Source: Campylobacterales bacterium | GTDB taxonomy: Bacteria > Campylobacterota > Campylobacteria > Campylobacterales > QNZT01 | Assembly: GCA_027081495.1 (NCBI GenBank) | Contig: JALWKJ010000155.1 | Location: forward strand, 1-44,865 | DNA length: 44,865 nt | Direction of reading: 5' to 3' | Shown here: positions 34,330-42,417 of the stretch, piece by piece | Layout: every line of letters starts with the position of its first letter | Numbering within the stretch: position 1 is the stretch's first letter | The notes under the pieces: model-generated | Seen by the model: the letters and a program-made list of their open reading frames with translations, nothing else | Told to the model about the DNA's origin: nothing | The model's database searches: none | Made by a program: the position numbers and the translations under genes

Positions 34330-34995
34330 ATGTTAGCCAGTAGAAAATATATATATCAAAATCTCGAAGAGAAAAAAGAGAGTATAGATATACCCGAAAA
34401 AGAGATAAAAAAGGTCAAAATAAAAAGACCTAAGCCTCTCGATGAAGAGATTGAGCTTTCCGCGAAAAAATATATCATGAGCAAAACCGATCCAAAAGGA
34501 ATCATAGAATACGGCAATGAATATTTTGTTGAAATAAGCGGTTACAAAGAGAGCGAACTTGTCGGAAAACCCCATAATATCATCAGACATCCCGATATGC
34601 CCAAAGTTATTTTTAAACTATTGTGGGATCGTCTCGAAAGCAGAAAAAATATCTACGCGATAGTCAAAAACCTATCAAAAAGCGGTCGTTACTACTGGGT
34701 TATCACCGATTTCGATATCAAAATAAACCGTGCGACAAATGAAGTTTTAGGCTATTTCGCATATAGAAAAGCCGCTCCTAAATACGCCGTCAAAGAGATC
34801 GAGAAACTCTACAAAAAATTAACGGAAATCGAAGCGGAAAGCGGAATGGACGGCTCGCAAAAATATCTAACGGGCTTTTTGGAAGCTAGAGGACAAACTT
34901 ACGACGAATATATAGACGATATTACACGAAATAAAGGCATAGCGAAACTTTGGTTTAAAGCGATGAAAAAATTCTTTTCAAAAAAAGGGCATTAA
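34330..34995 (+). CDS. Soluble Aer/CetB-type (FAD-binding class) PAS domain protein
   Basis: TDPKGIIEYGNEYFVEISGYKESELVGKPHNIIRHPDMPKVIFKLLWDRL...VKNLSKSGRYYWV closely follows the Aer N-terminal PAS signature (PHNxxRHPDMP). There is no TM, HAMP or MCP signalling domain. Confidence 0.8.
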   Translation: MLASRKYIYQNLEEKKESIDIPEKEIKKVKIKRPKPLDEEIELSAKKYIMSKTDPKGIIEYGNEYFVEISGYKESELVGKPHNIIRHPDMPKVIFKLLWDRLESRKNIYAIVKNLSKSGRYYWVITDFDIKINRATNEVLGYFAYRKAAPKYAVKEIEKLYKKLTEIEAESGMDGSQKYLTGFLEARGQTYDEYIDDITRNKGIAKLWFKAMKKFFSKKGH

Positions 34996-36098
34996 AACTT
35001 TTTCTCTAAAACGGCGGTAAATATCTTTTGACTAAGTTTTATTCTACGAATGAAACTCTCTTTGTTGGCTCTCTCATGCACGGTATGATCGCCGTCGCCG
35101 TAAGGTCCAAATCCGTCAAGCGTTATAACGCCCGCGCTTGAGACGATATTTGCATCGCTTACTCCGCCTCTTTTTTCCGCCTCGAGTTTAAAGCCGGATA
35201 TCTTTTCTATTTTTCGTAAAAAGTCAAGCTGCGCCGCAAAACTTTGCATCACATCTCTTTGTATATCTCCGCTAAGAGTCGATGAAGCGCCCTCGACAAA
35301 CGAACTGTTTACGATCTCAAAAAGCGACTTTAAAACTCTGTCTCTCTCGGTTGATAGAGCGTAACGAACCTCCAGCGTTAACCTTGCGTGAGGAGAAACG
35401 GTATTTGCTCCTATACCGCCCTCGATTATTCCCACATTTACGGTCGTCTCTTTTTCAAGATCGCTTAAATCCGTCAACGCGATCAATTTTCTTGCCGCTT
35501 CGAGATTTGCGTTTACGCCTTTTGTATAATGATTTCCGGCATGAGAAGCTCTGCCTTTTATATCTATGAAAAATGTTCCAACCCCTTTGCGCCCAGATAC
35601 GACTTCGTCATTTGCTCCCGCCGCCTCATATACGAGACAATAATCGTAATCTTTTGCGATATCTTTTGTTAAAAATTTAGAATCGTCGCTGCCGGTTTCT
35701 TCGTCGCTTACAAGCAGCATATCTATATTTACTATTTTTCCAAACTCTTTATAAGCGTTTCTAAGCGCGCTTAGGGCTACGAAATTTCCGCCTTTCATAT
35801 CGCAAACCCCCGGACCGTAAATCCACTCTTCGTCTTCGCTAAAATGTTCGAAGCTATTTGGAGGAAAAACCGTATCGAGGTGTCCTAGCAAAAGAAGCTT
35901 TTTCCCATCCTCCTTTTTACTTATAAAATGAAGATGATCTCCTATCTCTTCTCTTTTGTGTATAACCGTTTTAAATCCCAGCTCTTTCATCCAAGCGGTA
36001 AAAATTTTACCGTTTTTATCAACGCCTTCTTTATTTTTCGTATATGAATTGATATTTACGATTTTTGACAAGTCCGAAAAGTCAAACTTATTTTTCAT
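34992..36098 (-). CDS. M20 family metallopeptidase, glutamate-carboxypeptidase (CPG2)-like
   Basis: LLLLGHLDTVFP, GPGVCDMKGG, LLVSDEETGS and a C-terminal GDGDHTVHE, the full set of M20 metal and catalytic motifs. No signal peptide. Confidence 0.8.
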   Translation of the reverse strand: MKNKFDFSDLSKIVNINSYTKNKEGVDKNGKIFTAWMKELGFKTVIHKREEIGDHLHFISKKEDGKKLLLLGHLDTVFPPNSFEHFSEDEEWIYGPGVCDMKGGNFVALSALRNAYKEFGKIVNIDMLLVSDEETGSDDSKFLTKDIAKDYDYCLVYEAAGANDEVVSGRKGVGTFFIDIKGRASHAGNHYTKGVNANLEAARKLIALTDLSDLEKETTVNVGIIEGGIGANTVSPHARLTLEVRYALSTERDRVLKSLFEIVNSSFVEGASSTLSGDIQRDVMQSFAAQLDFLRKIEKISGFKLEAEKRGGVSDANIVSSAGVITLDGFGPYGDGDHTVHERANKESFIRRIKLSQKIFTAVLEKKF

Positions 36099-36178
36099 AT
36101 AATTCCTTTTTATATAGCGACCATTAATTAAAATTTACCTATAATTATACAACTAATATCATTTAGAAAGGATATCTT

Positions 36179-37099
36179 ATGTCCTCATATAATATCGGAA
36201 TGTGGATGTACCAAAACAGCGGCGGCGATAAAATCCAGCGGCGATTGATCGAGCTATTGAAAGAGAGGGGTATAACCGTGCATCCCAATCTTAATCTAAG
36301 ATACGCGAAGGTTCGAAACGGAAAAATAAATTGTGAAAATATCGTCATGGAAGAGCTTGATCTCTTCTTCTCCTACAATGCCGGAGAACAAACCCTTTAC
36401 CAGGTATATCTGTATGAAATGATCGATAAATTTATACCGACGATAAACAGTTTTGAAGCTTTCAGTCTCAGCGAAGATAAATTTAAAACCGCTCATCTGC
36501 TTAAACGAAACGGCGTAAACACGGCGGACTATGTACTTTGCCATAGAGACGAAGTAACGAATATCAGAGAAATTTTAAAAGAGTGGGGAGGAAAAGTAGT
36601 ATATAAACCGACCGACGGGTGGGGAGGCGTGGGACTTGTAAAGATAGAAAACGAAGCGGCTTTAGATATGCTTCTTCCGTTTTTAAATCAAACCGATATT
36701 CGCTACTTTTATCTCGAAAGATTTATCCAATACGACAACACGGACTTTAGAATAGACATCGTTGACGGAGAGTTTGTTTCATGTTACGGTCGTCGCGCTC
36801 CAAAAGACAACTGGAAAACAAATATCACAAGCGGCGGCTCCATCATGCTAAGAGAAGCAAACGACGAAGTTGTGGAAATAGCGAAAAAAGCGGTAAAAAT
36901 ATGCGGTTTGGACATAGCCGGGGTCGATTTGATCTATGACCTTGAAAAAGAGGAATACATTGTGCTGGAAGTTAATGGAATTCCCGCTTTCGCAACTCCG
37001 CAGCAAGAAAAAATGGGACTTGATTTCAATGAAAAAAAGATAGATCTTATCGTAGATCTGATCGAAAAAAAAGTAAAAGGACGCTTCCAAAATGGGTAA
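36179..37099 (+). CDS. RimK-family ATP-grasp ligase (alpha-L-glutamate-ligase-like) 1
   Basis: EDKFKTAHLLKRNGVNT, VYKPTDGWGGVGLVKIE, DFRIDIVDGEFVSCYGRRAPKDNWKTNITSGGS and GLDIAGVDLIYD...YIVLEVNGIP (D/E/N Mg ligands present). Confidence 0.82.
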   Translation: MSSYNIGMWMYQNSGGDKIQRRLIELLKERGITVHPNLNLRYAKVRNGKINCENIVMEELDLFFSYNAGEQTLYQVYLYEMIDKFIPTINSFEAFSLSEDKFKTAHLLKRNGVNTADYVLCHRDEVTNIREILKEWGGKVVYKPTDGWGGVGLVKIENEAALDMLLPFLNQTDIRYFYLERFIQYDNTDFRIDIVDGEFVSCYGRRAPKDNWKTNITSGGSIMLREANDEVVEIAKKAVKICGLDIAGVDLIYDLEKEEYIVLEVNGIPAFATPQQEKMGLDFNEKKIDLIVDLIEKKVKGRFQNG

Positions 37100-38510
37100 A
37101 AAGAGAAAAAACAGACAAAAATTGCCGAAAATCGGTTTTTTATATCTTGATTTCGTATTGAGATTTTTTGACAAATCAAATTTCCGCGGCTGGCCGGACA
37201 AAATAGAGACCGTCACTTATCACTGGAAAAACGATAAAAACAGATTTATAAAAGAGGTAAAACGAAAAAAGATCGATGTGTTGATAGGAAATATTCCCGC
37301 AACGGCTTACGAAACTTTCAGAGAGATAGCAAAAGAGCTTCCCCATGTACGGTTTATCCCCTCTTTGGATACTCAGTTTTCAAATAAATCCAAAGAGAAT
37401 GTAACGAGATTTTGCTGGAAATACGACATACCCGTACCTCAAACCTATATCTTCTACGACAGAAAAAAAGGTTATGAATTTATAGAAAAAACCACTTATC
37501 CGAAAATCGTCAAAAAGAGCTACGGTCCATCAAATTACGGAGGGTATTTCGTACACAAAGTCGATTCGAAAGAGGAAGCGAAAAAACTGTTTGATATAAA
37601 AAAATACCATCCTATGTATATGCAGGATTTCGTACCTATGCAAGCGGATGTCAGGGTTATGCTTATCGGACATAAGCCCGTTTGCGCTTTTTGGAGAAGA
37701 CCGCCGAAGGGAGAGTGGCTTACAAATACTTCTCAAGGCGGAAGTATGGATTATCAAAATGTTCCAAAAGAGCTTTTGGATTTGGCGGTTAAAGTTTCAA
37801 AAGCGGCAAACGCGGAGTATTGGGCATGCGACATAGCGGTGGGCAAAGACGGAAAATACCGAATATTGGAGTGCGCTACCGCATTTGCGGCTTTTCCTTA
37901 CATAAGAGACTGGATAGGACAATACCTGATGTGGAAATTAAGCGACGGGAGATTTAAAAAACCGAATATTCCGCTTTACAACTGGGAAGAACTCGGAAAA
38001 ATCGACACATCGCTTCTAAGAACCATGCGCTATATCACTTTCGGCAAATATACTCCAAGCTTTGACGGCGAATATTTCATGAAGAAGAAAAAAGCGACCA
38101 TAAAAGGTCAAAAAGAGGTTTTCGTACTGGATTCACTCTATCCTATGCTCGATACGAAAGATAGAAAAGGCGAAGAGTGGCCAAGCCGAAAATGGAATTT
38201 TCAAGACAAATATAGGCTAAAAAGTATTAAAACGATGGAAGTAGAACGAATCGACGGCGACGAATCGTCTATAAACACCGAATCGGTAAGCGACGAAGCT
38301 TTTTTCGAATATCTCTCGACCGCCGCCAAAGAAGAGGGTTTTGGAAAGAAAAAAGCGAAACGGCTTCTTCAAGAACACGGTAAAGAGGAGTTAATAAAAA
38401 CTCTTGAAAAGAGTCCCGAAAAATTAAAACGGATGAAAGGAATCAAGAAAAAAAGATTTAAAAAACTACTCGACGGATGGGAGAGATTTAAACGGATATT
38501 TATGGTATAA
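37092..38510 (+). CDS. Divergent RimK-like ATP-grasp protein 2 with a long C-terminal extension ending in a basic (HhH)2-like tail
   Basis: KKSYGPSNYGGYFVHKV, DVRVMLIGHKPVCAFWRRPPKGEWLTNTSQGGS and ACDIAVGKDGKYRILECATAF; the usual E-x-N reads E-C-A. About 190 extra C-terminal residues end in GFGKKKAKRLL...LKRMKGIKKKRFKKLL. The start overlaps the stop of ligase 1 by 8 nt. Confidence 0.75.
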   Translation: MGKKRKNRQKLPKIGFLYLDFVLRFFDKSNFRGWPDKIETVTYHWKNDKNRFIKEVKRKKIDVLIGNIPATAYETFREIAKELPHVRFIPSLDTQFSNKSKENVTRFCWKYDIPVPQTYIFYDRKKGYEFIEKTTYPKIVKKSYGPSNYGGYFVHKVDSKEEAKKLFDIKKYHPMYMQDFVPMQADVRVMLIGHKPVCAFWRRPPKGEWLTNTSQGGSMDYQNVPKELLDLAVKVSKAANAEYWACDIAVGKDGKYRILECATAFAAFPYIRDWIGQYLMWKLSDGRFKKPNIPLYNWEELGKIDTSLLRTMRYITFGKYTPSFDGEYFMKKKKATIKGQKEVFVLDSLYPMLDTKDRKGEEWPSRKWNFQDKYRLKSIKTMEVERIDGDESSINTESVSDEAFFEYLSTAAKEEGFGKKKAKRLLQEHGKEELIKTLEKSPEKLKRMKGIKKKRFKKLLDGWERFKRIFMV

Positions 38511-38511
38511 T
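38503..38511 (+). promoter_or_regulatory. Extended -10 box (TGGTATAAT) overlapping the stop of ATP-grasp 2
   Basis: TGnTATAAT consensus 34 nt upstream of the M14 ATG, with GGAG 5 nt before the ATG. The same 12-mer TATGGTATAATC recurs at 42494. Confidence 0.45.
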
Positions 38512-38544
38512 CACCGCTTAGCATCTAACCCACTATGGAGCATT

Positions 38545-41130
38545 ATGAAACAACAATATAAATCTTATGAACAGACATGCTCTTTTTTAAAAGAGTGTGT
38601 TCAAAAATTTCCCAATCTTATCAAAATAGAATCTATCGGCAAAAGCTGGGAAGGCAGAGAGATACTTCTGGCGACCCTGACGATAGGAGTGGAAAACGCC
38701 GATCTTAAATCCGCCCTTTTATACACGGGCACTATTCACGCTAGAGAGTGGATCGGAAACGAACTTAGCGTCGCTTTTATAGAATATATACTTAAAAATC
38801 ATCAAAGCGATCCGAAAATCGCGGCTGCGCTGACAAAAAATACCCTCTATATGGTTCCGTGTTTAAATCCCGACGGTTTTGAATATTCCAGAACGCACTT
38901 CTCTTTCTGGCGCAAAAACCGCCGCGATAATAAAGACGGCACATTCGGAGTGGATCTAAATAGAAACTTCAGCGTCGGTTTTACAAAAATAAAAGATACC
39001 TCTTCAAATGTTTACGGAGGAGTCGAACCCTTTTCGGAACCGGAAACCAGAGCCATCAAAGAGTTTGTTGACGCTCATCCAAATATTACGATGGCGCTTG
39101 ATTATCATTCTCAGGGAAATGTTTTTTTCCCGGCTCACAAATTTAATCATGAAGCAGAGATAGAGGGAACCGATTTAAATGTTTTATGCGCGAACATGAA
39201 CTATGAAATTAAAAAAATCACGGCTAGACAATACGGTATCCATAGAGGAAAACCCCCCGTAAAACTCATCAGCGGAAGCGGTCGCGAGTACTACTACTCA
39301 AAAGGAATCATCGCCGCCGTCGTGGAAGTCGGAACGAGGAATATTCCCGATTATATGCAAAATATGACCGAAAGCATCCATGAAAATATTCCGGCTTTAC
39401 TCTATGCCCTCTCCGAAGCAAAAAACTATGCCAAAAACGCGCCAAAAAGAGTAGAAAACTTTTATATCTCTTCATTCTCGAGCAACAGCGTTACGCTTGA
39501 ATGGGAAGATAGCGGCGACAACCCGAATCTTTTTTATCAGATATACAGAAGCACCAAACATAAAGAGGCTTGCCGGGAAGAAAATCTCATAGCGACCACT
39601 ACGAAAAAAAGCTTTACGGACATCGAGCTTGAGAGCGCGACGGAGTATTTTTACTATCTTAGATCAGTTGACAAGATCACAAATACGAGATCGCCTTTCG
39701 CGCCTCAACTAAAAGTAAAAACGGATCTTGAAAGAGACGAATTTTCAAAAACGATTTTTCCGCCCCCGTCCGAAATCGGCTATGTAGCCGAAAAATCGAT
39801 AGAACAAAACAGAGAGCATTTCGGCAAAAACTCGATCTTTGTGGGAATAAACCAGACAAAAGGCATCAGTTACGGAGTTTTGGCGTTTTCTCTGGCAAAT
39901 ATCCCCGAAAACGCTATCATACAAGAAGCTTCGATTTCGATGTACCCCATGAACCGCGTAAATGTCAAAATAGAAAAATACGGCGAATGGTCGCTCTCTT
40001 TTATAGACAAAGAGAGCGTGAGCGAGATTACCGATTTTTACCAAATACACGAGGCGGAAATCATTCAAACTCTGGGAGAAACCATACCCTCCGAAAAACT
40101 CACTCAAGGGATTTGGAGAGAGTGGCATTTTAACGATTATGAGAAAAAATTGCTTGAGAGCCAAATCGCCGGCAAAAAAGTTCTCTTTCGTTTTCAAGGT
40201 CCCACAAAACTTCCCCTTGGAAGAGATTCTCAAATGATGCAGTTTGATTTAGGGTACGGACCTTTTGGAGGAGGTATTCACTACAGACCTCATCTGGATA
40301 TAAAATATACCCTTCCCCCGACAAAGATTGAAATAAAGCCGACGATTTTAAGCGCGGTAACCAAAGATAAAATTCTGCCCGACAAACTATCTTGCGGGTT
40401 TGACAAAAACGGCGACAAAATCTACGGATATATGGAGTTTTCGCTTGACACCCTGCCCGATCCCGACACTACGGTCATAACCGACGCCTACATAGTAATC
40501 CAAAACAAAAATAGACCCAAGCTCTCCGTCGATGCGAGATACAATATAGAATTTATAGATACGAAAAGCCATGAGTGGGAAGATATAAAAAATAGAGATA
40601 GAATCGAGTTTATAGGATACGAAGTAAGCATCGCCGATCTAAAAAAAAGAGACAAGCACTATTTTTTGTTTGATACTCTAAGCAAACTTGAACTGGAAAA
40701 TTTTCACAAACAAAACCATAGCGCAAATTTCGTCATAAAAGCGACGACTCCGGCAGACGCGAAAAACCATCGGGTTGACTGGCATGACAAACACGACGAC
40801 AAAGAGGTAAAACTTGTCATAAAATATATAAAACGGCGAAAGTACGCTCCCTCTTCGTGCAAAAACCTAAAGACATCGATAGAAAAAGGCATGGTCAAAT
40901 TGACCTGGGAAAATCCGAAAGACGAAAGCTTTGTAGGAGCGTATGTAGTAAGAAATCGTTTTCATCCGCCTAAAAATCCGCTTGACGGCGTAAAACTGTA
41001 TGCGGGAAGCGACAACTATACATACGATAACTTCGGCTCGACGAAAATCGATAAATATTACGCGGTTTTTTCCTATGACGATGTGCCAAACTACTCAACC
41101 CCCCTAGTTTTGGAATACAAAGGAAAATAG
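38545..41130 (+). CDS. Multidomain M14 zinc carboxypeptidase (M14 - FN3 - two repeated beta-sandwich-like modules - FN3), no signal peptide
   Basis: H65-x2-E68 (HAREW), NPDG, WRKNRR, DLNRNF, SEPETRA, DYH188S and VVE261VG, a complete M14 catalytic set. FN3-like regions at aa ~300-392 and ~768-861. The N-terminus MKQQYKSYEQTCSF is not hydrophobic. Confidence 0.85.
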   Translation: MKQQYKSYEQTCSFLKECVQKFPNLIKIESIGKSWEGREILLATLTIGVENADLKSALLYTGTIHAREWIGNELSVAFIEYILKNHQSDPKIAAALTKNTLYMVPCLNPDGFEYSRTHFSFWRKNRRDNKDGTFGVDLNRNFSVGFTKIKDTSSNVYGGVEPFSEPETRAIKEFVDAHPNITMALDYHSQGNVFFPAHKFNHEAEIEGTDLNVLCANMNYEIKKITARQYGIHRGKPPVKLISGSGREYYYSKGIIAAVVEVGTRNIPDYMQNMTESIHENIPALLYALSEAKNYAKNAPKRVENFYISSFSSNSVTLEWEDSGDNPNLFYQIYRSTKHKEACREENLIATTTKKSFTDIELESATEYFYYLRSVDKITNTRSPFAPQLKVKTDLERDEFSKTIFPPPSEIGYVAEKSIEQNREHFGKNSIFVGINQTKGISYGVLAFSLANIPENAIIQEASISMYPMNRVNVKIEKYGEWSLSFIDKESVSEITDFYQIHEAEIIQTLGETIPSEKLTQGIWREWHFNDYEKKLLESQIAGKKVLFRFQGPTKLPLGRDSQMMQFDLGYGPFGGGIHYRPHLDIKYTLPPTKIEIKPTILSAVTKDKILPDKLSCGFDKNGDKIYGYMEFSLDTLPDPDTTVITDAYIVIQNKNRPKLSVDARYNIEFIDTKSHEWEDIKNRDRIEFIGYEVSIADLKKRDKHYFLFDTLSKLELENFHKQNHSANFVIKATTPADAKNHRVDWHDKHDDKEVKLVIKYIKRRKYAPSSCKNLKTSIEKGMVKLTWENPKDESFVGAYVVRNRFHPPKNPLDGVKLYAGSDNYTYDNFGSTKIDKYYAVFSYDDVPNYSTPLVLEYKGK

Positions 41131-41781
41131 TTGGCGAAAAAAGCTTCGAAAAAAGAGATAGAGGAGATAAGAAAAAGATTTATCGAGCGCTATAAAGACG
41201 CGAAAACGGAGTTAAACTATACGAATCTTTATGAACTTTTAGTATCCGTAATGCTCTCGGCTCAATGCACCGACAAGCGGGTAAACATCATAACTCCCGC
41301 TCTTTTTAAAAAATATCCCTCGCCTAAAGAGTTGGCCGCCGCGAAAATAGAAGAGCTAAAAGATCTCATAAAAACCTGCTCTTTTTTTAATAACAAAGCC
41401 GCAAATCTCATAAAAATGGCAAAAAGCGTCGAAGAGATATATAACGGTGAAATTCCGCTGGATGAAAAAGAGCTTGTCAAACTTGCCGGAGTAGGACAAA
41501 AAACGGCTCATGTAGTCATGATAGAGTTTACTCAAAAAAATTTGATGGCGGTAGATACTCATGTTTTTCGCGTTGCGCATAGGTTGGGTCTTAGTTTCGC
41601 AAAAACGGTAAAACAGACCGAAGAGGATCTGGTTAACGCCTTTAAAACCGATCTATATATACTTCATCAGGCGATGGTGCTTTTTGGGCGATATATCTGC
41701 ACCGCCAAAAACCCAAAATGCGACAGCGAGTGTTTCATGAAAGATCTTTGCAAAACAAAAGAGAGCTTCAAAGCCGGCTGA
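41131..41781 (+). CDS. nth: Endonuclease III (HhH-GPD DNA glycosylase/AP lyase)
   Basis: LVSVMLSAQCTDKRVN, HhH LAGVGQKTAHVV, catalytic-Asp region VDTHVFRVAHRLG and a C-terminal Fe-S cluster CTAKNPKCDSECFMKDLC. The TTG start immediately follows the M14 TAG stop. Confidence 0.88.
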   Translation: MAKKASKKEIEEIRKRFIERYKDAKTELNYTNLYELLVSVMLSAQCTDKRVNIITPALFKKYPSPKELAAAKIEELKDLIKTCSFFNNKAANLIKMAKSVEEIYNGEIPLDEKELVKLAGVGQKTAHVVMIEFTQKNLMAVDTHVFRVAHRLGLSFAKTVKQTEEDLVNAFKTDLYILHQAMVLFGRYICTAKNPKCDSECFMKDLCKTKESFKAG

Positions 41782-42287
41782 TGAAAATAAGTCTCAAAAA
41801 AACAGCGATACAACTTCTGCAACTCGTAATCATAGTCGCGATCATCACGAACCTAATAAGCTATTTTAAAAAACCTCCCATAGCGAACGAAAGTCTGCCC
41901 GATATAAAGGTTCGGTTTTTGGACAAAAAAGAGCTCTCGCTATCCGATTTTAAAACAAAACCTCTTGTTCTCTATTTCTGGGGTTCTTGGTGTCCGGTTT
42001 GCAAGATAAACTCTTTGGCGATAAATAGCTTGACAAAAGATTTCAATGTCGTAACCGTAGCGGTAAACAGCGGCGGCGATGACGAGTTGAAAAAATATCT
42101 AAAAGATCATGATCTAAATTTTAAAGTCATAAACGACAATGACGCCAAACTGGCAAAGAAATTTGCCGTAACGACTTTTCCAACCACTTTCACATACGAC
42201 TCCAAAGGGGAAAATATCTTTGTTGACAGCGGCTATACATCCGCGTTGTCGCTTAGGTTTAAACTATGGATAGGGGAATTTTTTTAA
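41781..42287 (+). CDS. TlpA/ResA-like membrane-anchored thioredoxin (thiol:disulfide oxidoreductase)
   Basis: N-terminal TM helix (LLQLVIIVAIITNLISYF), WGSWCPVC active site and FPTTF cis-Pro loop. The ATG at 41781 overlaps the nth TGA; the ORF-track 21-codon extension lies inside nth. Confidence 0.82.
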   Translation: MKISLKKTAIQLLQLVIIVAIITNLISYFKKPPIANESLPDIKVRFLDKKELSLSDFKTKPLVLYFWGSWCPVCKINSLAINSLTKDFNVVTVAVNSGGDDELKKYLKDHDLNFKVINDNDAKLAKKFAVTTFPTTFTYDSKGENIFVDSGYTSALSLRFKLWIGEFF

Positions 42288-42374
42288 ATTGCCTCCTATG
42301 AAATCCAAACCTCCCACATGATCTATATATTAAAAATATAGTAATTTAATTAAAATATATTAAATAATTTGATG

Positions 42375-42395
42375 TTTGACACAACTTTGACACAA
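42375..42395. repeat. Tandem direct repeat TTTGACACAA x2 (11-bp period)
   Basis: TTTGACACAA-C-TTTGACACAA in the intergenic region upstream of the dehydrogenase gene. Confidence 0.7.
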
Positions 42396-42417
42396 TTTCT
42401 CGTTATACTTCTTTTGT

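Follow-up and report, generated by a model that had tools for sequence, protein, structure and literature searches.

The window analysed here, the 44,865 nucleotides (nt) of contig JALWKJ010000155.1 of a Campylobacterales bacterium (assembly GCA_027081495.1), carries the gene of an 861-residue M14 carboxypeptidase, P0001, which we propose to act as the hydrolase of a four-gene module that is conserved and moves horizontally and whose other members are an M20 peptidase and two RimK-like ATP-grasp ligases. The reading that P0001 is a cytoplasmic carboxypeptidase for acidic C-termini, erasing glutamyl chains made by these ligases, has in our estimate about an even chance of being correct. Full-length homologues of P0001 number more than 120 (856-882 amino acids, aa; 64-92% identity), their database names are generic ('M14 family zinc carboxypeptidase', 'peptidase' or 'predicted deacylase'), and we found no description of the protein or of the four-gene cluster in the literature.

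The N-terminal domain of P0001 matches Pfam Peptidase_M14 (PF00246) over aa 13-266 (E = 1.6e-53, 182.6 bits versus a cut-off of 21.6) and is the sole PF00246 match in the genome of the window. Csd4/Pgp1, the cell-shape M14 carboxypeptidases known from this phylum, are periplasmic enzymes ~450 aa long whose substrates are peptidoglycan peptides. Comparison of the family profile with the sequences of the Protein Data Bank (PDB) returned the carboxypeptidases CPA4 (2.3e-40) and CPT (6.8e-40), with CPA4, CPT, CPO and CPB spanning 1e-36 to 1e-40, the M14B enzymes CPD, CPM and CPN at 1e-16 to 1e-20, and no M14C or M14D (CCP) chain at E <=1e-10. The predicted structure gave CPT (3prt, E = 6e-17) in Foldseek, and by its closest relatives in sequence and in modelled fold the catalytic domain is of the M14A lineage. 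The first-pass annotation, a reading of the DNA letters that had singled out this gene, stated that the domain keeps every catalytic motif. This holds for the zinc ligands H65, E68 and H188 and for R123, N139, R140 and E261 (R127, N144, R145 and E270 of bovine carboxypeptidase A, CPA), all of which are invariant in two sets of 29 and 41 orthologues, but not for Tyr248, whose aligned position is K240 and varies (K/R/N/A/H/Q/G/S) among orthologues; a Tyr is aligned there in 6 of 13 other bacterial M14s in the same alignment.

Besides the missing Tyr248, that annotation had missed an Arg at the S1' position. The segment SGSGREYYYSKGI aligns without gaps with SGSSIDWAYDNGI of CPA4, which puts Arg247 at bovine CPA position 255. 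Arg247 is invariant in the same two orthologue sets, and Arg occupies position 255 in none of the 13 other bacterial M14s. In the CCP deglutamylases of tubulin, the preference for acidic residues is predicted to be set by an Arg at 255 (PMC4230590). Given an invariant Arg in the putative S1' pocket, the C-terminal residues removed by P0001 would most likely be acidic (Glu, perhaps Asp).

The closest functional analogues of P0001 and its partners are the eukaryotic TTLL/CCP pair and Pseudomonas RimK/RimB, while its closest sequence relatives are CPT and CPA4. Like P0001, itself most likely cytoplasmic, CCP/Nna1 (M14D) is a cytoplasmic M14 enzyme that lacks a pro-domain and has Arg at the equivalent of CPA 255 (PMC4230590), and CCPs are functionally paired with TTLL glutamylases much as P0001 is genetically paired with ATP-grasp amino-acid ligases. 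Unlike the CCPs, P0001 is of the M14A lineage, has no N-terminal beta-sandwich, carries other accessory domains at its C-terminus and accompanies ligases that are RimK-like rather than TTLL. CPT, CPA4 and CPB (M14A), the closest enzymes by sequence and fold (profile E 1e-40; Foldseek template modelling (TM) score ~0.74-0.80), have the same Zn ligands and share R127, N144, R145 and E270; they differ in being made as zymogens that are secreted by means of a signal peptide and bear a pro-domain at the N-terminus, in keeping Tyr248, in having Ile or Asp at 255, and in lacking FN3- or DNRLRE-like modules. Carboxypeptidase O (CPO) has an acidic specificity that is attributed to Arg275, not Arg255. 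This enzyme (5mrv among the PDB profile matches, 8.7e-37) resembles P0001 in being of M14A type without a pro-domain and, according to PMC6214572, prefers acidic C-terminal residues, but it is eukaryotic, associated with membranes or lipid droplets, and devoid of accessory beta-sandwich domains. By sequence and domain order P0001 thus stands outside M14D, and by its lack of a pro-domain and of Tyr248 outside typical M14A, although it is an M14 enzyme by every other test.

The genes next to the M14 gene point to glutamate. Two ATP-grasp ligase genes that overlap by 8 nt lie upstream, preceded by an M20 peptidase gene that is divergent from them in the window and co-directional in some other taxa. 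Ligase 1 has MptN (tetrahydromethanopterin:alpha-L-glutamate ligase) as its best NCBIfam match (5.6e-39) and RimK 5zct and 4iwx as its nearest solved structures (E = 3e-15), and scores 124.3 bits with TIGR00768, under the cut-off of 143.4; ligase 2 is nearest in solved structure to Thermus RimK/LysX (E = 1e-9) and scores 79.3 bits, under the same cut-off. The M20 peptidase has carboxypeptidase G2 as its nearest solved structure (1cg2, E = 1.5e-34). Because the two RimK-like ligases, the carboxypeptidase G2 relative and the Arg at 255 all point to glutamate, we read the M14 enzyme as a probable exopeptidase that shortens alpha-glutamyl chains. A comparable arrangement exists in Pseudomonas, where the RimK-like alpha-L-glutamate ligase is co-encoded with a proposed counter-protease, RimB, and with RimA (PMC11957791). 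There, ribosomal protein S6 is polyglutamylated and trimmed and the eraser is a small retropepsin-like aspartic protease, whereas the cluster described here would use an 861-aa metallocarboxypeptidase and an M20 peptidase as erasers, has two ligases that lie under the RimK-family cut-off, and lends no support to S6 as the substrate. A survey of ATP-grasp enzymes leaves peptidase partners unmentioned (PMC4431377).

The order M20, ligase 1, ligase 2, M14 is kept between taxa whose flanking genes differ. We found the four-gene set in Campylobacterota (Nitrosophilus, Sulfurovum, Halarcobacter and Poseidonibacter), in Gammaproteobacteria (Photobacterium, Paraglaciecola, Pseudoalteromonas, Agarivorans and Veronia) and in a Magnetococcales genome, with ligase 2 adjoining the M14 gene in most loci. 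In a survey of 301 Campylobacterota species genomes that sampled 58 genera, the M14 gene was present in 28 genomes from 17 genera and in none of the 90 and 124 genomes of the two largest families, and an intact ligase 2 gene occurred in exactly the same 28 genomes. The view of the first-pass annotation that the protein is unusual within its phylum therefore gives way to that of a conserved orthologue, shared with Gammaproteobacteria and annotated only in generic terms. In a maximum-likelihood tree the six gammaproteobacterial M14s form one clade (support 100/100) beside the clade that contains P0001 (98/95) and are nested, under midpoint rooting, which establishes neither root nor direction, in campylobacterotal diversity; the Arcobacteraceae M14s fall at two separate positions. 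Because of this nesting and of the split of the Arcobacteraceae, we conclude that the cluster moves horizontally. The association with M20 also exists within one polypeptide: a search with aa 396-861 recovered P0126 from the representative library, a 1243-aa fusion of M14, FN3, modules A and B, FN3 and M20 that is 38% identical to aa 398-857 of P0001.

P0001 itself bears no sign of export. Among 41 homologues, Kyte-Doolittle means over 10 residues do not exceed 1.06 within the N-terminal 45 aa and means over 19 residues do not exceed 1.24 at any position, and hence no stretch reaches the strength of a signal peptide or of a membrane segment; 28 further orthologues, which together with the 41 represent three classes, likewise have no hydrophobic stretch of either strength. 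All members of both sets begin MKxQYxSY, and the M14 domain starts at residue 5, with nothing ahead of the catalytic domain. A longer N-terminus is not possible because the ATG at 38545 is the first start codon (ATG, GTG or TTG) past an upstream in-frame stop; GGAG lies 4 nt 5' of this ATG. The hydrophilic N-terminus noted in the first pass is accordingly found in all orthologues, and no cryptic signal was seen in these hydropathy profiles. From the lack of an export signal in three classes, the ATP-dependent partners and the fusion to a signal-less M20, P0001 is most likely cytoplasmic. The same co-inheritance with ligases and the same fusion suggest that it was probably the wrong frame to take the extracellular-type decorations as the puzzle of an exported protein.

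The five domains of P0001 follow in the order M14, FN3, module A, module B and FN3 (Table 1), the two modules being duplicated jelly rolls. This architecture is the one that had been proposed from the sequence. A full-length AlphaFold2 model built from 41 homologues (mean predicted local distance difference test (pLDDT) 81.7, predicted TM score (pTM) 0.80) has an alpha/beta fold for the catalytic domain and, after it, four domains that are wholly or mostly beta, and its pTM suggests that the domains are held in fixed packing relative to each other. A fold search with this model matched M14 catalytic domains only and was uninformative on the other domains, for which reason a separate model of aa 396-766 was made (pLDDT 89.3). 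Structure prediction with Foldseek, a check put forward together with the architecture, leads from the full-length model to CPT 3prt and from the middle region to folds of carbohydrate-binding modules (CBMs). Full-length identity of M14 orthologues across classes is 46-70%. Per-domain conservation was taken as the mean identity to P0001 among 28 orthologues, and the values of 41-57% for the accessory domains across classes are, in our judgement, high for decorative extracellular modules. The most conserved stretches outside the catalytic domain are KYYAVFSYDDVPNYS in FN3b and, in module A, the Gly-rich loop QMMQFDLGYGPFGGGIHYRP and PMNRVNVKIEKYGEW.

Table 1. Features of the M14 gene and its cluster in the window; identity is the mean to P0001 among 28 orthologues.
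Feature	Position	Strand	Identity	Basis and remarks
Whole gene, M14 carboxypeptidase P0001 (861 aa)	38545..41130 (including stop codon)	+		Open reading frame analysis, Pfam
M14 catalytic domain, M14A (CPA/CPB/CPT) lineage by sequence and modelled fold, aa 1-295	38545..39429	+	70% (31% invariant columns)	Pfam, PDB profile search, Foldseek; most conserved part of the protein
Arg247 codon, placed by alignment where bovine CPA has Ile255, at the base of its S1' specificity pocket	39283..39285	+		Sequence alignment
First FN3-like domain (FN3a), aa ~303-392	39451..39720	+	43%	Pfam fn3, model
Module A, DNRLRE/CBM96-like beta jelly roll, aa 396-592	39730..40320	+	56%	NCBIfam DNRLRE_dom, hhalign, Foldseek; better conserved copy
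Gly-rich loop of module A, near-invariant, aa 556-582, LPLGRDSQMMQFDLGYGPFGGGIHYRP	40210..40290	+		Invariant alignment columns
Module B, diverged duplicate of module A, aa 593-766	40321..40842	+	41%	hhalign
Second FN3-like domain (FN3b), aa ~767-861	40843..41127	+	57%	Repeat homology, model
M20 peptidase (368 aa, P0271), carboxypeptidase G2-like, no signal peptide	34992..36098	-		Family matches, structure relative, synteny
ATP-grasp ligase 1 (306 aa, P0272), RimK family type	36179..37099	+		Profile matches, structure relatives, synteny
ATP-grasp ligase 2 (472 aa, P0273), RimK/LysX-like core	37092..38510	+		Family and structure matches, co-occurrence with M14

Of the two FN3-like segments named in the first pass, FN3a matches Pfam fn3 (PF00041) in P0001 at aa 303-380 (E = 0.003, 18.2 bits, under the cut-off of 25) and exceeds that cut-off in the orthologue P0050 (8.3e-8, 32.8 bits). 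FN3b has no direct Pfam match and is homologous to a repeat that occurs in up to 11 copies in large proteins with fn3/DUF4959 matches; each of the two segments is modelled as a 7-strand sandwich. We do not claim FN3a and FN3b as mutual duplicates, their hhalign comparison being weak (E = 1.7e-3, 41 columns, probability 15%).

The internal duplication of the middle region is real by several sequence comparisons. Modules A and B are matched by hhalign at a probability of 96% (E = 4.4e-9; aa 428-558 against 612-738) when built from close homologues and of 97.3% (E = 2.2e-11, 148 columns) when built from 28 more diverse orthologues. In the single sequence their Smith-Waterman score is 61, against 30.6 +/- 5.3 for shuffled sequences, with 0 of 500 shuffles reaching 61, and the two motif strings from which the duplication had been proposed align to each other exactly. 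The accompanying guess of a DNRLRE-type module also finds support: NCBIfam DNRLRE_dom (NF033679) matches aa 421-469 only (profile positions 9-58 of 164; 27.4 bits, under the cut-off of 34), and the best Foldseek match of the aa 396-766 model is the chondroitin-sulfate-binding CBM 8wab (E = 2.3e-7, TM score 0.71-0.74 on the target), followed by the alginate-binding CBM96 7vbo (TM6-N4; E = 4.9e-4, TM score 0.62) and also the TGF-beta1 prodomain. For CBM96, an identity of about 30% with DNRLRE domains and a positively charged ligand groove are reported (PMC9971899). That modules A and B share the predicted jelly-roll fold of polyanionic-polysaccharide binders suggests, by analogy, that they might bind poly-Glu. 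The DNRLRE/CBM96 modules, however, reside in secreted polysaccharide lyases and bind sugars, whereas P0001 has two diverged copies in a signal-less peptidase, and module A differs from them by its own invariant Gly-rich loop. This loop, mostly without counterpart in module B and of low model confidence at aa 573-578, is a candidate for touching the substrate or the active site. Module A also recurs, at 25-29% identity (E = 1e-14 to 1e-26), in P0165, P0178, P0188 and P0249, S8 subtilases of 1325-1431 aa with a fervidolysin-type pro-domain and CAP domains; module A is therefore common to two unrelated peptidase families.

A division of labour among the four enzymes can be proposed from these features. 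The two RimK-like ligases would build alpha-glutamyl chains, either on a protein C-terminus or as free oligo- or poly-glutamate, the M14 enzyme would trim these chains from the C-terminus, and the M20 peptidase would take off the last glutamate or split small products. The four beta-sandwich domains may pack on the catalytic domain and limit access to a polyanionic substrate, and such a restriction would make an otherwise unguarded carboxypeptidase safe in the cell. P0001 might thus replace the pro-domain by two restraints, its S1' Arg and the four accessory domains, which the model predicts to form a compact shell. A more specific version of the proposal, which we hold tentatively and find somewhat doubtful, is that of a mobile, self-contained and reversible polyglutamylation system in several marine lineages, in which RimK-like writers are opposed by an M14A deglutamylase convergent with the CCPs at Arg255, the modules have been repurposed to read poly-Glu in the cell, the M20 peptidase finishes the erasure, and the target is one or more cytoplasmic, possibly nucleic-acid-associated proteins.

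Several observations weigh against the assignment of P0001 as a cytoplasmic deglutamylase. The active-site loops (aa 119-159, 236-244 and 265-269) have a pLDDT <50 in the model, and the placement of Arg247 in the S1' pocket rests on alignment in poorly modelled surroundings. The absence of a Tyr aligned at 248 may mean lowered or altered activity. Glutamate as the ligase substrate is an extrapolation, both ligases lying under the curated RimK-family cut-off. Module A is acidic overall (isoelectric point 5.6), which does not point to a polyanion binder; secreted enzymes are where FN3 and CBM-like modules typically occur, and the subtilases that contain relatives of module A are apparently secreted. 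Ribosomal protein S6 was set aside as evidence, since its C-termini, compared in five genomes of which some have the system and some lack it, show no pattern (with the system, ...ADE for the genome of the window, ...AAE for G010 and ...TEA for G291; without it, ...GEA for G057). Finally, two Arcobacteraceae-type loci (L003 and L004) have an M14 gene of the window's clade and no ligase genes within 6 kb. Other Arcobacteraceae loci (L025, L032 and L033) have the full cluster with an M14 of a divergent clade, and this pattern could reflect two acquisitions or paralogues.

Among the alternatives, the one that survives best would assign to the four enzymes the synthesis and breakdown of some small molecule that contains glutamate, with no protein editing and the M14 enzyme merely catabolic; we regard it as unlikely, if a serious contender. 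Candidates would be a cofactor with a glutamyl tail (as added by MptN and CofF to tetrahydromethanopterin and F420), an N-acyl-glutamate, a compatible solute or a storage oligopeptide. Carboxypeptidase G2, the closest relative of the M20 peptidase, acts on folate and N-acyl-glutamates, and ligase 1 matches CofF in addition to MptN. RimK is reported in PMC10375531 to make free poly-alpha-glutamate in vitro; moreover, the named hosts are all marine or from vents, which would suit an osmotic role, and the loci compared have no conserved candidate substrate gene in the cluster. However, such a task hardly seems to call for an enzyme of 861 aa that carries four conserved domains of binding type, the basic tail of ligase 2 with its weak RecD2 match (see below) hints at a macromolecular setting, and the matches to cofactor ligases are all far under their cut-offs.

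We give little credence to non-classical export, by which P0001 would act on a peptide in or on an anionic polymer (capsule, peptidoglycan or matrix) with its CBM-like and FN3 domains as anchors. The domain types and nearest folds of secreted enzymes, the S8 subtilase-CAP relatives with their pro-domain, and locus L004, where the M14 gene adjoins lipopolysaccharide-core genes, would fit this view; some 70 orthologues without signal peptide or membrane segment, an M14 domain that begins at residue 5, co-inheritance with ATP-grasp ligases, fusion to a signal-less M20 and a high full-length identity across classes all argue for an intracellular enzyme instead. A LysW/ArgW-type carrier-protein pathway, or an ATP-grasp pathway for a ribosomally synthesized and post-translationally modified peptide (RiPP; graspetide), seems just as improbable. 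Here the ligases would attach or cross-link amino acids on a short peptide whose gene lies elsewhere, with release or maturation of the product left to the M20 and M14 enzymes, as might be read from the matches of ligase 1 to LysX (2.2e-30), of the M20 peptidase, weakly, to [LysW]-lysine hydrolase (1.3e-13), and of ligase 2, again weakly, to ATP-grasp RiPP maturases (TIGR04187, 4.7e-7; MvdC, 2.7e-5). These matches are all far under cut-offs, however, the conserved cluster contains no LysW-like, precursor-peptide, LysZ, LysY or LysJ gene (the gaps in the window being 34-80 nt), and RiPP clusters, in our judgement, rarely keep 50-70% identity across classes. Slightly less probable still is that the M14 domain is a weak or pseudo-enzyme and the protein a binding or scaffold 'reader' for the ligases and M20, since the Zn ligands, R123, N139, R140 and E261 are all invariant in some 70 orthologues and the catalytic domain is the best conserved part, even though the Tyr248 position varies, the non-catalytic domains are strongly conserved and M14 pseudo-enzymes exist (PMC7706225).

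If P0001 is indeed a deglutamylase, the module has implications beyond the relabelling of one gene. Reversible amino-acid tailing is well studied in eukaryotes, with TTLL ligases and CCP peptidases acting on tubulin, but in bacteria it is, to our knowledge, known essentially from RimK on S6 with the retropepsin counter-enzyme of Pseudomonas. The module described here has four conserved genes, one of them for a large metallocarboxypeptidase dedicated to it, and occurs in Campylobacterota of vents and sediments as well as in Photobacterium, Pseudoalteromonas, Paraglaciecola and Agarivorans, which can be cultured; it would then represent a second writer/eraser system of bacteria, independent of the first. 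Position 255 would offer a case of convergently evolved acidic specificity, DNRLRE/CBM96 modules, so far tied to extracellular polysaccharide binding, would acquire an intracellular role, and the bare label 'M14 family zinc carboxypeptidase' could be replaced on thousands of database entries. Since cultured marine Gammaproteobacteria carry the module and should serve as workable hosts, the question is directly testable.

Several loci depart from the usual arrangement. In genus g11, the M14 and ligase 2 genes are unlinked yet both kept; the distance between them is ~0.8 Mb in two complete genomes (G010 and G169), while in G262 each lies on a contig of its own. Another genome of this genus, which is without the M14 gene, has a 103-aa ligase 2 remnant with TGA and TAA stops (G041:C1:157167-157469), apparently what is left of the system as it decays. 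Two loci, L028 of Sulfurimonas CS5 and L027, have M20 and ligase 1 immediately before the M14 gene but no ligase 2 in the flank. The M14 frame of Veronia nyctiphanis (L036:6001-7047) stops after 349 aa, with M20 and both ligases intact upstream; we take it for a pseudogene with a frameshift or, alternatively, for an error of the assembly.

Ligase 2 is conserved across families only in aa 1-335, and its C-terminal ~140 aa form a lysine-rich tail of variable length, with a weak match to the RecD2 N-terminal region at aa 400-468 (E = 4.5e-6). As to transcription, intergenic gaps within the cluster are 34-80 nt in the window, and promoter- and terminator-like matches in 34900-42400 show no excess over shuffles; operon structure is for this reason read solely from spacing, overlap and synteny. 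A sequence of extended -10 form, TGGTATAAT, is found at 38502-38510, where it overlaps the stop codon of ligase 2 (38508-38510) 34 nt ahead of the M14 start, and was not listed by a consensus promoter scan that requires a -35 hexamer. At the other end of the gene, the TTG start of endonuclease III (nth) directly abuts the M14 stop codon without a spacer (41128-41133); this junction is not conserved, other taxa having a different downstream gene.

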